From IMG/VR virus record IMGVR_UViG_3300020391_000003, positions 64,001 through 128,000 of that record: a DNA stretch of 64,000 nucleotides; one strand, written 5' to 3'. Numbering within the stretch: position 1 is the stretch's first letter; every line of letters starts with the position of its first letter. Of this stretch, positions 2,721 through 40,527 are shown one piece after another. The position numbers were made by a program, and so were the translations under genes. A model generated the notes under the pieces. It was not told the origin of the DNA, did not search any database, and saw only the letters and a list, made by a program, of their open reading frames with translations. Source of the DNA: a virus.

Positions 2721-3082
2721 GGGCGTGTTCTGGATTCGATTTTTATTGGATTAGTTCACTGCAAGCCGAAGAGGTGCCTGGCTTCGATAAAAGGCACAAG
2801 CGAATAAATGCTAAAAACATTAATTCTGTTGAATCCTTCTCTCAAGAAGGGCTCGCTCTTGCAGCTTAAGTCTGCAACCTCTCCTCAATTGACGCAGATA
2901 AATTGAATGAGGGGTCATCCATCTGCAAAACAGATAAAAGTTTACTTGTTTCACAAACTGTAAATAATTGAGACAATTAGTTTGATGTTAATATCATAAC
3001 TATAAAAAAAATTAACTAAGCTTGTAGACGTGAATCTCTTGATGATAAAAAGACGCGGGTTCAACTCCCGCCACGTCCACCA
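2721..3082 (+). ncRNA. ssrA: tmRNA; tag peptide AKNINSVESFSQEGLALAA* (2810-2869)
   Basis: 5' GGGCGTG pairs with 3' CACGTCC-ACCA with G3:U wobble; GGATTCGA D-loop-like motif; T-arm GCGGG-TTCAACT-CCCGC; tag ORF ends LALAA. Confidence 0.95.
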
Positions 3083-3178
3083 TTTACATGATTAAAAATA
3101 AAAAGTTAATTAATTATAAAATCAAAAAGCTAGAAAATAAAATTGTTTTTTTACAAAAGAAAAAATCTACTTTAGTTC

Positions 3179-6633: not shown

Positions 6634-7173
6634 ATGTTAGAGGGAATATTTTTCGTTATAATTTTATGTCTTTTGTTTTATATAAAAGATCTTAAAAAAA
6701 GAGAAGATCCTAGAATTAGCGAGTTACAAGAAAAAGCTTGGACTTTAGAAGTTTCAGTTGAACAAGAGCGAGCCAATAAACAAGATTCAGAAAATCATGC
6801 AAAAATTAGCAGGCAATTTCTTGAAGACGAACGAGTTCACCGAAAGAATATCGAGAAACAACTTTTTGAAACTCAAGATAAATTAGAACAAGAAACAGAA
6901 CAGCGCAAAAAAGTTTTATCGCAAAAGAAAAGTGGCGAAGTTAGGCTAGGTCATATTGCTGAAACCTTAGCTCCATTTTTAGATCAGTTTGACTTTGATC
7001 CAGAAAATTGTTGCTTTATGGGCAAGCCCATAGATTATGTTTCTTTCGGGGATGATGAGATTACATTTATAGAGGTCAAGAGCGGTAATGCTCAACTTAG
7101 CAGCAAACAAAGACACATTAGAGATTTAGTTAAACAAAAATTAGTATCATGGAAAGAAGTAAGAATCAAGTAA
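6634..7173 (+). CDS. Holliday junction resolvase-like endonuclease with N-terminal TM and coiled coil
   Basis: GHIAETLAPF..GKPIDYVSF..FIEVKSG..QRHIRD pattern. Confidence 0.75.
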   Translation: MLEGIFFVIILCLLFYIKDLKKREDPRISELQEKAWTLEVSVEQERANKQDSENHAKISRQFLEDERVHRKNIEKQLFETQDKLEQETEQRKKVLSQKKSGEVRLGHIAETLAPFLDQFDFDPENCCFMGKPIDYVSFGDDEITFIEVKSGNAQLSSKQRHIRDLVKQKLVSWKEVRIK

Positions 7174-17386: not shown

Positions 17387-17462
17387 GCCACCTTAGCTCA
17401 GTTGGTAGAGCACCTCACTTGTAATGAGGATGTCGTCAGTTCGACTCTGACAGGTGGCTCCA
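17387..17462 (+). tRNA. tRNA-Thr(UGU)
   Basis: 76 nt cloverleaf GCCACCT/AGGTGGC, anticodon arm CCTCA-CTTGTAA-TGAGG, TTCGA T-loop, encoded CCA. Confidence 0.96.
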
Positions 17463-37434: not shown

Positions 37435-37635
37435 ATGGATGAATTGCAAAAAATAAGTGCCGAAATAATAAATATATTTAATAATAAGGTAGAATCACTA
37501 TCAGAAGAACAAGCAGAAGTATTAAATTTGCACAATAATAGTATGAATTTTTATATTCAATTGGGTGATCGACAAAAAGCCATGTGGGAAGCACAACAAA
37601 CACTAAAATATTTAATCCAAATAACTCATGATTGA
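37435..37635 (+). CDS. Hypothetical protein
   Basis: 66 aa ORF. Confidence 0.5.
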   Translation: MDELQKISAEIINIFNNKVESLSEEQAEVLNLHNNSMNFYIQLGDRQKAMWEAQQTLKYLIQITHD

Positions 37636-37849
37636 TGATCTTGATCCTAGTGCCGAAGAAGTATTACAACTTACTCTTGAAATATTACATTTAATTGAAA
37701 CTAAAGCTAGTTTGATTAGTGATGATGAGATGAATGAAGTGCTTATGTCTAATGAATCAATACAATTCTTTATTGAACAAGATGATACCGACAGGGCACT
37801 GCTTGAAGCCCGCAATCTAAAAAAATATTTAATGCGATTAGGCACATAA
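37628..37849 (+). CDS. Acidic hypothetical protein
   Basis: 73 aa ORF. Confidence 0.55.
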   Translation: MIDDLDPSAEEVLQLTLEILHLIETKASLISDDEMNEVLMSNESIQFFIEQDDTDRALLEARNLKKYLMRLGT

Positions 37850-37984
37850 TAATATTGCATCATATAAAAAGCAATAATACAATCTTTTATCTTATACAAT
37901 ACATAATACTAAATAAACAATCTAATTGCAGGATATAAAAAGCAAAATATATCAATTCAAATAAACATTTAATTATAAAAAATT

Positions 37985-38134
37985 ATGAAGCAAATAAACA
38001 CAAATAAGTATTTGGTTGGCAAAAAGAAGTTGGGCAAAGGCAAAGTCGGAGCTAGAGGTGGAGTTGGTGTTCCAACAGGAGCTTTCGGAGGAAAATCCAA
38101 GTTCAACAAGAAAAAGCTTGACAAGTCTGAGTAA
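37985..38134 (+). CDS. Lys/Gly-rich microprotein (49 aa, not in track)
   Basis: MKQINTNKYLVGKKKLGKGKVGARGGVGVPTGAFGGKSKFNKKKLDKSE; explains two antisense shadow ORFs. Confidence 0.6.
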   Translation: MKQINTNKYLVGKKKLGKGKVGARGGVGVPTGAFGGKSKFNKKKLDKSE

Positions 38135-38183
38135 TCTGTCATAATAGAGTACATCAACCATTAATTGCTAACGAAAGGAAATT

Positions 38184-38405
38184 ATGAGCATTGCAAAAAA
38201 CGCACGAGCAAGTCAAGTTATGAACGACATACAGAGTGGCAAACACACGCCCATCAATAAAAGAGGTAAGTTTGCAAATTTCGGTTCAATCGCAGAAGAT
38301 AGTATTTATTATCACACAATGCTTGCAGATCAAGCTGATGCAAAACAAAAAGCTAAAGCTCAACAAGCTAAAGCAAGACTTAGATTAAAAGGAATTATTG
38401 TTTAA
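38184..38405 (+). CDS. Hypothetical protein
   Basis: 73 aa ORF behind a TTGACA promoter. Confidence 0.6.
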   Translation: MSIAKNARASQVMNDIQSGKHTPINKRGKFANFGSIAEDSIYYHTMLADQADAKQKAKAQQAKARLRLKGIIV

Positions 38406-38407
38406 TT

Positions 38408-38680
38408 ATGCACCCAAAAGTAGAACAACCTGTTGGTTCGTATACCGAATTTGAAAAGCTTGCCTGGATAAGCACCAAAGCAATTCCTGCCATAGGAAGT
38501 AAGCTGAATGTAAAAATTAATGGAATTGGCGAATCTATTGTTAAGAAGTATTTCGTAGAGTATGGCTTTATTGGGATGCTTGTTACTCCTCAGAATCCAC
38601 CTGCTTGGTACATCAAGCAAAACGGAAAAGGTGCTGATTGCCATGTTTATCCTGCTGAATGTGAAGAGCTAAGAGGATGA
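38408..38680 (+). CDS. Hypothetical protein
   Basis: 90 aa ORF. Confidence 0.6.
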   Translation: MHPKVEQPVGSYTEFEKLAWISTKAIPAIGSKLNVKINGIGESIVKKYFVEYGFIGMLVTPQNPPAWYIKQNGKGADCHVYPAECEELRG

Positions 38681-38686
38681 TTAACA

Positions 38687-38893
38687 ATGGACTGGATAGT
38701 TAGAACATACGACGAGCAAGACAATCAAATCTCGTCCTTTATTATACAGAATAGAACAGAGTCTCAGGCAGAGCGTGAGGCGATGCACGATACAGAAGTT
38801 AGATCCGCCGAAGATTGGAGTATGGAGGAATACAATGGAATGATTAACCCATCAGATAAAAGCAAAATAAATAAAAAAACTCTTGACAAATAA
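38687..38893 (+). CDS. Hypothetical protein
   Basis: 68 aa ORF. Confidence 0.55.
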   Translation: MDWIVRTYDEQDNQISSFIIQNRTESQAEREAMHDTEVRSAEDWSMEEYNGMINPSDKSKINKKTLDK

Positions 38894-38911
38894 TAAATAA
38901 TAGAGTATAAT
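38883..38911 (+). promoter_or_regulatory. Consensus sigma70 promoter driving a non-coding transcript
   Basis: TTGACA-17-TATAAT with no protein-coding gene before the terminator at 39214-39257. Confidence 0.85.
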
Positions 38912-38917
38912 AGATAC

Positions 38918-39257
38918 ATAAATTTGAGAACAAAACTCAAATAAATAAAATAAATTGATCTTTAACATTTTAAACACTTTGGAAGGGCTTATAATCCTTC
39001 CTGTGGGTGACTGAGCAAGCCTGTGATGAGCGGGCTAAGGTACGCAGATTCCTTGTGGTGAGGTAGCAGAGTCCAATCGGATGAGCTGATGACGAATACC
39101 AAGTCTAATTTGTGGTGCGAAGTAGGAAACACTTGAACTGATGTTCATCCCGAAAAGTCGAGGGTATACAGTAATCCCTTCCCACACTAATTTTCTTAAT
39201 CATACAATCCCTAACCCTGTCCAAGACAAAGAAGAACCTCTTGGATGGGGTTTTTTT
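38918..39257 (+). ncRNA. Candidate structured ncRNA of unknown family (GC-richer core about 38981-39186)
   Basis: Promoter, leader hairpin ATTTGAG/CTCAAAT, boxA-like TGATCTTTAACA, ends of core complementary (GGAAGGG/CCCTTCC), internal hairpins, terminator. Confidence 0.65.
39214..39257 (+). terminator. Rho-independent terminator
   Basis: 13-bp stem ACCCTGTCCAAGA/TCTTGGATGGGGT (two G:U), 12-nt loop, T-run. Confidence 0.75.
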
Positions 39258-39295
39258 GTTTGACAGTCGCATCAAAACCTGGCATAATTATAATC

Positions 39296-39550
39296 ATGAA
39301 CACATTATTACAAATCTTCACGAATTGGGGTTACATTACCGATTCACAACTCAAAGAACTTGTTGAATACTTTCCGCACACGAAAGTGGTTATTCAATGG
39401 GGCAGAATGAAACGCGAGCGTCTTCCAGCATGGGAAGCAATTGAACGCATGGAAAAAGTAGAAGCAGAGGACATTGATTATGTTCGTTCTGTCTTTTTTA
39501 CTTCTCAGGACATGGACAAGCTCAGAGAAGTATTTCACATTGTTCATTAA
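39296..39550 (+). CDS. Hypothetical protein (start corrected)
   Basis: TTGACA(39260)-17-CATAAT, ATG 7 nt later. Confidence 0.65.
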   Translation: MNTLLQIFTNWGYITDSQLKELVEYFPHTKVVIQWGRMKRERLPAWEAIERMEKVEAEDIDYVRSVFFTSQDMDKLREVFHIVH

Positions 39551-39724
39551 TGGAAATCTCAATCATAATAATAATCAGTTTTACAATAGGTATGATAAGA
39601 GCAATAACAGATAATAAACAATAAAATAATAAAAGACAAATACTTAAATACTAAATAATCAAGTTCAAATAATTAAATAAAAATTTAAAGTAAATTGCGT
39701 TCAATAGAATAAGTTAATTGAACG

Positions 39725-39769
39725 AAAAGTTTTGTGCAGCTCGGCCCCCCCTGCAATCGTATTGTGCAA
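39725..39769 (+). repeat. GC-palindrome/ATTGTGCAA element, copy E1
   Basis: AAAAGTT..GGCCCCCCC..TGCAATCGTATTGTGCAA, then TTGACA at 39791. Confidence 0.7.
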
Positions 39770-39824
39770 GAAATTAAATGAATTGTTTTCTTGACATTCA
39801 CATCAATTCTGTCATAATGAAGTA

Positions 39825-40262
39825 ATGATTAAGCGAGACTCCCGATACAAGATAAACTTCAACAAAAAAGTCTTTGTTTACAAAAACCTTCACAAAAACT
39901 GTTGGAGCGTAAAGCAAAGCGGATTAGTCAAAGCTCACGCTCTCGAATTGAATCTTTATGATTGCGTTCTCAAGGTCAGCAAAGCGGGTCAGCAAAGAGT
40001 GCGTAATGAAAAGTGTAAAAATGTTCATGCAGGTGTTAGCGGTTATCTTGAACCATACCACTTAGGATTGTCACACGAAGCAGAACTGAATGATGAAGCA
40101 AGAACATTTCAACGAGCTTGGGAAGGTTTACCAAATTCGCAGATGAGAGAGATTACTTACAATCCTTACAAGTATGACTCATTCGTTCATGCAGATGATC
40201 AAACTCCTCGTTGGTTTGGGTCTTTTGTAAGATTATTAGAAAATCAAGTATTTATTGCTTGA
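39825..40262 (+). CDS. Hypothetical phage protein
   Basis: VFVYKNLHKNCWSVK..KNVHAGVSG pattern. Confidence 0.7.
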   Translation: MIKRDSRYKINFNKKVFVYKNLHKNCWSVKQSGLVKAHALELNLYDCVLKVSKAGQQRVRNEKCKNVHAGVSGYLEPYHLGLSHEAELNDEARTFQRAWEGLPNSQMREITYNPYKYDSFVHADDQTPRWFGSFVRLLENQVFIA

Positions 40263-40293
40263 CTCAAACACCCCCAAATGATAGGATACATTT

Positions 40294-40527
40294 ATGACAC
40301 AATCACAAATTAGAGAAATGATTATTCAACTCACGAAGGGTAATCTCGCATGGGCAGATCCAATGTCTAAAGTTTGCCTTGATCAACACGAACTTCATCC
40401 CAAAAAGTTTCCGCTTGGCAGTACTTTTCAGTCAGCAGAAGAAGTTTTGGATGACATCATTTCAGACTTGACATCTTTCAGAGATGAGCTTAGAATAGAA
40501 TCATCTTTTCAATCAGCACAATTGTAA
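40294..40527 (+). CDS. Hypothetical protein
   Basis: 77 aa ORF. Confidence 0.6.
   Translation: MTQSQIREMIIQLTKGNLAWADPMSKVCLDQHELHPKKFPLGSTFQSAEEVLDDIISDLTSFRDELRIESSFQSAQL

Follow-up and report, generated by a model that had tools for sequence, protein, structure and literature searches.

A divergent manA-family RNA in an uncultured large phage, probably encoded as a free-standing gene behind a boxA-like leader

The locus and its relatives

We analysed a stretch of viral DNA of 64,000 nucleotides (nt), hereafter the window, which comprises bases 64001-128000 of a 184,324-bp IMG/VR virus record (IMGVR_UViG_3300020391_000003) that CheckV rates as complete. An earlier reading of the letters of this DNA (the original prediction) had drawn attention to a structured RNA gene of no recognised family in its middle part. 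The present work assigns this RNA to the manA family (RF01745) and considers whether it is a gene in its own right or a regulatory leader of its neighbor. In the window and its close relatives, hereafter the clade, the locus is laid out as a promoter, a leader with a hairpin and a boxA-like element, the manA core, a terminator, a fresh promoter and a small gene (Table 1). An Rfam scan of the whole window returned three RNAs, namely a transfer-messenger RNA (tmRNA) at 2721-3082, a transfer RNA (tRNA) for threonine at 17387-17459 and the manA RNA, and a scan of the whole genome found no other manA copy.

Besides the tmRNA, the carrier phage encodes rIIA and an ATP-dependent DNA ligase. The nearest cultured matches of the ligase and of rIIA lie in distant phages, at 24-41% identity, and by these proteins cultured phages with T4-type genes are no more than distant relatives of the uncultured 184-kilobase (kb) phage. 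Neither the locus nor the core alone gave a blastn match among GenBank phages, and a tblastn search of the same phages with the small protein encoded downstream was likewise empty. Pfam and PHROGs returned nothing informative for the small proteins around the RNA gene.

Relatives were collected with a degenerate pattern built from two conserved motifs of the family, which led to more than 120 viral contigs, five of which are close to the window sequence (76-98% identity over the core). A clade-specific pattern then gave 17 contigs and, with the window included, 15 distinct cores, that is, 14 distinct relatives. These 15 cores make up alignment A1, for which the consensus structure was taken from RNAalifold with two helices added from the Rfam alignment. 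When the family pattern was run against bacterial genomes, two of the 120 matches listed looked real, the rest being mostly chance, and no clue to the host was obtained. A scan of viral contigs with a boxA-like 16-mer recovered only the same clade amid a majority of chance matches in AT-rich DNA.

Table 1. Features of the manA locus, numbered from the first base of the window
Feature	Position	Strand	Remarks
sigma-70 promoter	38883-38911	+	TTGACA 38883-38888, 17-nt spacer, TATAAT 38906-38911; 12/12
Leader hairpin (boxB-like position)	38922-38942	+	ATTTGAG 38922-38928 with CTCAAAT 38936-38942; 7-bp stem, 7-nt loop
boxA-like element TGATCTTTAACATTTTA	38956-38972	+	15/17 identity to Escherichia coli rrnB boxA plus flank
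manA core (RF01745)	38981-39190	+	P1 38981-39001; closing helix 39003-39007 with 39181-39185; six further hairpins/helices
Hairpin loop GUGGUG	39055-39060	+	Invariant in the clade; complementary to the ACCA loop; placed as L5 of the preprint
Hairpin loop ACCA	39098-39101	+	Conserved; placed as L7
CUG at the UGAAC/GUUCA hairpin loop	39138-39140	+	Complementary to CAG of the next loop; placed as L8
3' hairpin GGGUAUACAGUAAUCCC	39162-39178	+	Invariant in the clade; CAG 39169-39171; loop placed as L9
Linker UUUCUUAAUCAU	39192-39203	+	Single-stranded, core to terminator; kept in several relatives
Intrinsic terminator	39213-39257	+	39213-39226 with 39239-39252; up to 14 pairs, 12 in G+C-rich core; 12-nt loop
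Promoter of the next gene	39260-39288	+	TTGACA, 17 nt, TG-n-CATAAT; 11/12, extended -10; 3 nt past the T-run
Small gene, 84 amino acids	39296-39550	+	Conserved; no Pfam, PHROG or GenBank-phage match

Identity as a manA RNA

The match of the core to RF01745, obtained with cmscan, scores 74.0 bits against a gathering score of 55.2, spans model positions 1-192 of 192 and has an E value of 6e-17 for the whole window. In a permissive Rfam rescan of 38800-39400, no second family appeared at E <= 1. Since the match lies above the gathering score, the claim of an unrecognised RNA falls, and by the covariance model the flagged RNA is a full-length member of a catalogued family and not a new class. The conserved junction and loop sequences of manA (GUGACUGA, UAAGGU, GUGGUG, ACCA and GGGUAUACAGUAAUCCC) are all present and aligned to the consensus, and the conserved sequences, including the GGGUA...A..AAUCC hairpin, are invariant or nearly so across the 15 clade members.

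Against RF01745 the scores are 71-88 bits for the 14 relatives and 142-185 bits for the four members of cyanophage type that were scored, which marks the window clade as a divergent manA subgroup. A structural difference lies in the penultimate arm, where the Rfam model has a 7-bp outer helix. In the cmscan alignment five of these pairs are non-standard, and the clade has instead a helix cut to 2 bp (A1 columns 142-143 with 183-184), in which C-G and G-C are exchanged 8 to 7. Peripheral helices are reported to vary between manA subgroups (bioRxiv 10.64898/2026.07.01.735769). In its P1 hairpin, its long-range closing helix, its conserved loops and its phage-borne, environmental origin, common to most of the family, the window RNA otherwise resembles the motif as first described (Weinberg et al., 2010, PMC2864571).

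Conserved fold and covariation

The consensus structure on A1 comprises 56 pairs in 12 helices, with standard pairs in 97.2% of the cells. Compensatory change on both sides is seen in 16 of the 56 pairs, and none of 500 shuffles matched the observed pairing or covariation score. In a control in which the partners were slid by 1-3 columns, 38-52% of cells were paired and at most six pairs were compensatory. Covariation among related phage contigs, a test of which the original prediction had recommended, was thus seen against these controls. Within the clade, four of the seven pairs of P1 change in a compensatory manner. The closing helix (GUGGG with CCCAC) aligns to the closing helix of the model and is invariant in the clade, and is therefore uninformative there for covariation. 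As read from this alignment, the RNA has a conserved branched domain of several hairpins, with a 5-bp helix closing it.

This fold departs from the one first proposed, in which the two ends of the core pair as GGAAGGG/CCCTTCC into a closed rod that could switch to an alternative. These 7-mers are complementary in the window, yet across the relatives only 73% of their cells are paired, there are zero compensatory changes, and the helix does no better than the 1-column slide control. The reason that it is not kept is the free variation of P1 opposite a 3' strand that does not change. The supposed alternative (local GGAAGG/CCUUCC together with GUGGG/CCCAC) turns out to be the family consensus fold, and the rod and its switch were rejected for want of conservation. 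Among the internal hairpins that had been listed, UGAAC/GUUCA belongs to the conserved fold, whereas TACCA/TGGTG and CCCGA-AAAG-TCG are absent from it.

The core is G+C-rich as first noticed, at a G+C content of 0.42-0.54 against 0.18-0.22 for the leader and 0.31-0.46 for the flanking genes. Open reading frames (ORFs) over the core are short and not conserved, the relatives differ by 1-2-nt insertions and deletions, and the variable core columns are distributed over the three codon positions as 30/35/33. A conserved short ORF, which the original prediction had named as a finding that would speak against a non-coding RNA, was not found in the clade alignment.

Promoter, leader hairpin and boxA-like element

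The promoter ahead of the RNA is the best site within 37500-40500, and its -35 box overlaps the end of an upstream ORF of 68 amino acids, the stop codon of which lies at 38891-38893. It scores 12/12 or 11/12 in 13 of the 15 distinct clade members. The stem TTGAG/CTCAA of the leader hairpin recurs in 14 of 15 members with variable loops, and in the remaining one (L105) it reads TTAAG/CTTAA, with both sides changed. The boxA-like element is present in 15 of 15 members, as (T/C)GATCTTT(A/T)ACATTTT or TTGTTCTTTAAT after an A-rich spacer, and is separated from the core by 9-11 nt or by an inserted segment of 64-120 nt. The promoter, the leader hairpin and the boxA-like element had all been pointed out at the outset, and each is upheld by its conservation in the clade.

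In ribosomal RNA (rRNA) operon leaders, the hairpin comes first and boxA follows. The leader studied here has the same order past a strong promoter and before a structured non-coding RNA, and differs from the E. coli rrn leader, with its boxB hairpin and NusB/NusE-dependent boxA, in being phage-encoded, in preceding a 210-nt RNA rather than rRNA, and in that Nus binding is a prediction here. The segment TGATCTTTAACAT at 38956-38968 agrees at 11 of 13 positions with boxA TGCTCTTTAACAA, a comparison that takes E. coli as reference. A primer for rrnB boxA contains TGCTCTTTAACAATTTA (PMC2176067), and this is the sequence with which TGATCTTTAACATTTTA agrees at 15 of 17 positions.

A related element stands before the tmRNA. 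The pre-tmRNA element TCTTTAAAATTTT at 2706-2718 and the pre-manA element TCTTTAACATTTT at 38959-38971 are similar and not identical, so that of the initial statement that the same boxA precedes both RNAs, the link is sound and the sameness is not. The pattern TCTTTWAHATTTT matches only twice in the window, both times on the plus strand (0.35 matches expected; 6 of 100 shuffles reach two), and one match ends 9 nt before the manA core while the other ends 2 nt before the tmRNA. Ahead of the tmRNA (tag AKNINSVESFSQEGLALAA), the boxA-like GTTCTTTAAAATTTTA and the stop codon of the preceding ORF overlap. In the relative L123, the tmRNA has a TTGACT-17-TATACT promoter and then GTTCTTTAACAGTTTA upstream (L123:11375-11420(-)). 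The near-exact boxA suggests that phages use host rRNA antitermination for stable RNAs of their own, for manA here and probably for the phage tmRNA too.

The leader sets the clade apart from the wider family. None of 105 wider-family manA loci has a boxA-like element within 160 nt upstream of the core, and the hairpin-plus-boxA leader of 68-183 nt is found in the window clade and in none of these 105, of which 48 have a promoter of at least 10/12 whose -10 box ends 1-11 nt before the core.

Two variations of the leader were also observed. Inserts of 64-120 nt between boxA and core occur in six relatives (L032:1704-1777, L033, L124, L105, L060 and L127). They differ in sequence and by eye have a closing helix of their own, for example GAGAGU.../...ACUCUC in L033 and L124, and a comparison of the inserts with Rfam gave no family match; the inserts could be additional modules belonging to the one RNA. 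In three relatives (L126:947-1005, L127:8371-8431(-) and L129:8038-8098(-)), the leader-hairpin loop and the segment just before the boxA-like element are complementary, through pairing sequences that differ between them (gggc/gccc, ggat/atcc and gaggc/gcctc), which resembles a covarying pseudoknot. The window leader is without this pairing.

Terminator and downstream gene

The terminator, which the original prediction had rightly placed at the end of the RNA, has a folding energy of -19.6 kcal/mol and seven T at 39251-39257; a consensus terminator scanner missed it because its loop exceeds 8 nt. Strong terminators (about -20 to -29 kcal/mol, with a T-run) occur in 13 of the 15 clade members, that is, in the window and 12 relatives, at the same place and with stem sequences that are unrelated from contig to contig. 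The terminator of L126 is weaker, T-poor and further downstream. The linker ahead of the terminator is replaced by other sequence in L060, L124 and L125-L129.

A fresh promoter follows almost at once. Measured from the first base of the T-run, TTGACA begins 5-16 nt downstream in the window and, among the 12 relatives that have a strong terminator, in 11, the locus of L033 ending earlier. The ATG of the small gene at 39296 stands 7 nt past the -10 box (CATAAT, 39283-39288) with no Shine-Dalgarno sequence, and in L032, L105, L128, L133 and L134 an ATG likewise stands 6-7 nt past a CATACT -10 box with no Shine-Dalgarno sequence. From this arrangement, the gene probably uses its own promoter to make a leaderless mRNA. 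In a transcript that reads through from the RNA gene, its AUG would then be internal and without a ribosome-binding site, a poor template for translation. The manA RNA and the small gene stay linked in most relatives.

Promoters with TTGACA that come near the consensus (11/12), some of them with the TG of an extended -10, were also seen at 38118, 39260, 39791 and 40468 of the window. Promoters before almost every small gene of the block form a dense array for the host polymerase, as is typical of an early region.

Loop contacts and reported oligomers

Two pairs of complementary loops are present in the core. TGGT and ACCA occur together in 116 of 123 distinct sequences of the manA family, and the last two hairpin loops pair as CUG/CAG in 96, as AUG/CAU in 21 and as UUG/CAA in one of these 123 sequences, with one mismatched, a nearly perfect covariation in which the counts are of sequences and not of independent events. 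The pairing of the last two loops was marked "pseudoknot?" when the motif was described (PMC2864571) and is an L8-L9' kissing loop in a recent preprint (10.64898/2026.07.01.735769), the loop numbers of which were placed on the window sequence by inference.

In that preprint, cryo-electron microscopy (cryo-EM) of five other manA RNAs revealed assemblies of eight and of ten subunits and a 60-mer cage composed of pentamers (bioRxiv 10.64898/2026.07.01.735769), the pentamers being joined by L5-L7' and L8-L9' (or L3-L8') kissing loops (10.64898/2026.07.01.735769). The window RNA belongs to the same family and has complementary L5-L7' and L8-L9' loop pairs; it is none of the five sequences studied, and it is known from sequence whereas their assemblies were obtained in vitro. 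The oligomer state differs between close manA variants, at 8, 10 or 60 subunits (10.64898/2026.07.01.735769), so that no subunit number can be derived for the window RNA. Purely by analogy with these members, the window manA probably acts as a self-assembling particle that forms pentamer-based closed oligomers via loop-loop contacts.

A stable RNA or a switch for its neighbor

The manA motif was rated a probable riboswitch, commonly located in 5' untranslated regions (UTRs) (Weinberg et al., 2010, PMC2864571), Rfam types RF01745 as Cis-reg, and the family is still called cis-regulatory in Rfam, in the 2023 S-CREM1 paper and in the 2026 preprint (10.64898/2026.07.01.735769). A 5'-UTR position before a protein gene, on which this label is based, is not what is found in the window, where a strong terminator belonging to the RNA gene, with a new promoter behind it, separates the core from the next gene, as it does in 13 of the 15 clade members. 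Its own promoter, boxA leader and terminator point to a stable RNA rather than to a 5'-UTR switch for the neighboring gene, and we consider it probable that the locus is a free-standing manA-family RNA gene of the phage, the product of which is a stable non-coding RNA. To this extent the original prediction is borne out: the phage encodes a structured RNA that does not code for protein and has a transcription unit to itself, and the architecture is conserved in related phage contigs.

According to this proposal, the host RNA polymerase would transcribe about 340 nt, from about 38918 to 39257, and the boxA leader would recruit the NusB/NusE-type antitermination machinery that serves the rrn operons of the host. 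The untranslated transcript would thereby escape Rho and fold co-transcriptionally as rRNA does, until the intrinsic terminator, which the antitermination complex would not override, ends the RNA. The product would be a stable and probably abundant non-coding RNA.

Several points weigh against a stable, self-assembling RNA of this kind. The transcript, its ends and its abundance are predicted from the DNA, and the function of the boxA-like element from similarity of sequence. Folding energy is no better than that of shuffled sequences (z of -1.79 when the entire unit is folded and of -0.98 when only the core is), and since thermodynamic stability is not significant, the case for structure is made by the covariance model and by covariation. 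Covariation of the loops gives the same signal for a contact within one molecule as for one between molecules, and the published oligomers were formed in vitro at 10 mM Mg2+ by other manA members (10.64898/2026.07.01.735769). The relative L123 (2003-2203(-)) is without a terminator, and an ORF (MFYIKKDEES...) begins about 21 nt past its core in a 5'-UTR-like layout. In the wider family, a terminator-like hairpin lies within 160 nt downstream at 33 of 119 viral loci (about 28%), and at most of the others an ORF starts 10-100 nt downstream, as in the 5'-UTR setting that Weinberg et al. (2010) described. Finally, transcriptional riboswitches classically have this same order of promoter, structured domain, terminator and gene.

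A riboswitch, as originally proposed for the family, would make manA a ligand aptamer with the terminator as its expression platform, read-through tuning the expression of the small gene. The published rating and the Rfam type, the classic order of parts, the layout of L123 and the persistent linkage of manA to the small gene all speak for it. It nevertheless fits the details of the clade poorly, and we regard it as unlikely. The near-consensus promoter just behind the T-run gives the next gene a start of its own, and its closely placed ATG seems built for leaderless translation. The terminator stems are self-complete and free to vary next to a core whose 3' strand is invariant, the minimum-energy fold contains both the core and the terminator, and no conserved antiterminator pairing was seen by eye, no systematic search having been run. 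The rrn-type leader is typical of stable RNAs, and the manA literature considered (the 2010 description, the 2023 S-CREM1 paper and the 2026 preprint) reports no ligand. Members of the family also stand directly before tRNAs: in the cyanophage-type loci L012:695-972(-) and L044:2482-2776(+), where manA scores 152-164 bits, a tRNA starts 5 nt past manA, so that the 3' end of manA would there be set by tRNA processing. Such an arrangement is more in keeping with a stable RNA that is processed than with a switch acting on a protein gene.

Two other roles have far less in their favor. Seeds of Hfq-type small RNAs usually lie just upstream of the terminator hairpin and U-tail, which is where the linker is found, single-stranded in the predicted fold and kept in several relatives, and the RNA could accordingly be a trans-acting base-pairing small RNA that uses the core as a stabilising scaffold and the linker as a seed. 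We hold this to be very unlikely, as the conserved 200-nt branched core would be left unexplained, the linker is replaced in several relatives as described above, and a count in the phage genome, with at most one mismatch allowed, gave 3 + 6 sites for its complement ATGATTAAGAAA and 4 + 7 for the reversed control; with no enrichment over that control, the linker was rejected as an antisense seed against phage genes. The least probable candidate is the RNA polymerase decoy resembling 6S RNA that the original prediction had offered. The similar size of about 200 nt and the gain that a phage could draw from redirecting the host polymerase are the indirect arguments for it, and it was discarded because no 6S family matches at E <= 1, because the fold is a branched domain with a 5-bp closing helix and not a long rod with a central bubble resembling an open promoter, and because the end-to-end helix that would form the rod is not conserved.

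Relation to known systems and significance

The manA family was described in 2010 and has an Rfam entry, and the stand-alone, boxA-led gene architecture of the present subgroup is not described in the manA literature (the 2010 description, the 2023 S-CREM1 paper and the 2026 preprint). A divergent manA subgroup of uncultured large phages that appears as a self-contained RNA gene adds context to an orphan family, argues against the label of a riboswitch in a 5' UTR, at least for the window subgroup, and fits the 2026 report of RNA-only manA oligomers.

ROOL and GOLLD are large non-coding RNAs of several hundred nt, associated with phages and prophages and sometimes located beside tRNA genes, for which RNA-only multimeric cages have been reported. 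The window RNA is likewise phage-borne, non-coding and elaborately folded, and would share with them the formation of homo-oligomers; ROOL and GOLLD are in contrast much larger and unrelated in sequence and fold, and neither has an Rfam match at the window locus. An extended proposal can be formulated only tentatively and strikes us as doubtful when all its parts are taken together: manA would be no gene switch in this clade, and a stable RNA produced in bulk with the help of an antitermination leader borrowed from rRNA would self-assemble in the infected cell into closed RNA-only particles, with the variable inserts as add-on modules. If this were true, the phage would encode an RNA nanostructure that might, for example, sequester a host factor or shield a cargo.

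Further observations in the wider family

The cyanophage-type locus L044 has a consensus promoter that stops a few nt short of the manA 5' end, and manA and the tRNA look co-transcribed. A further contig, L312 (NZ_RMVE01000006.1, titled Nonlabens xiamenensis), carries a manA RNA at 279-473 (141.7 bits), a tRNA at 3040-3112 and a PhotoRC-II RNA at 7029-7122. It belongs to a Flavobacteriia assembly, and it is in cyanophage DNA that manA, tRNA and PhotoRC-II are typically combined; the contig may thus come from a phage or be a contamination.

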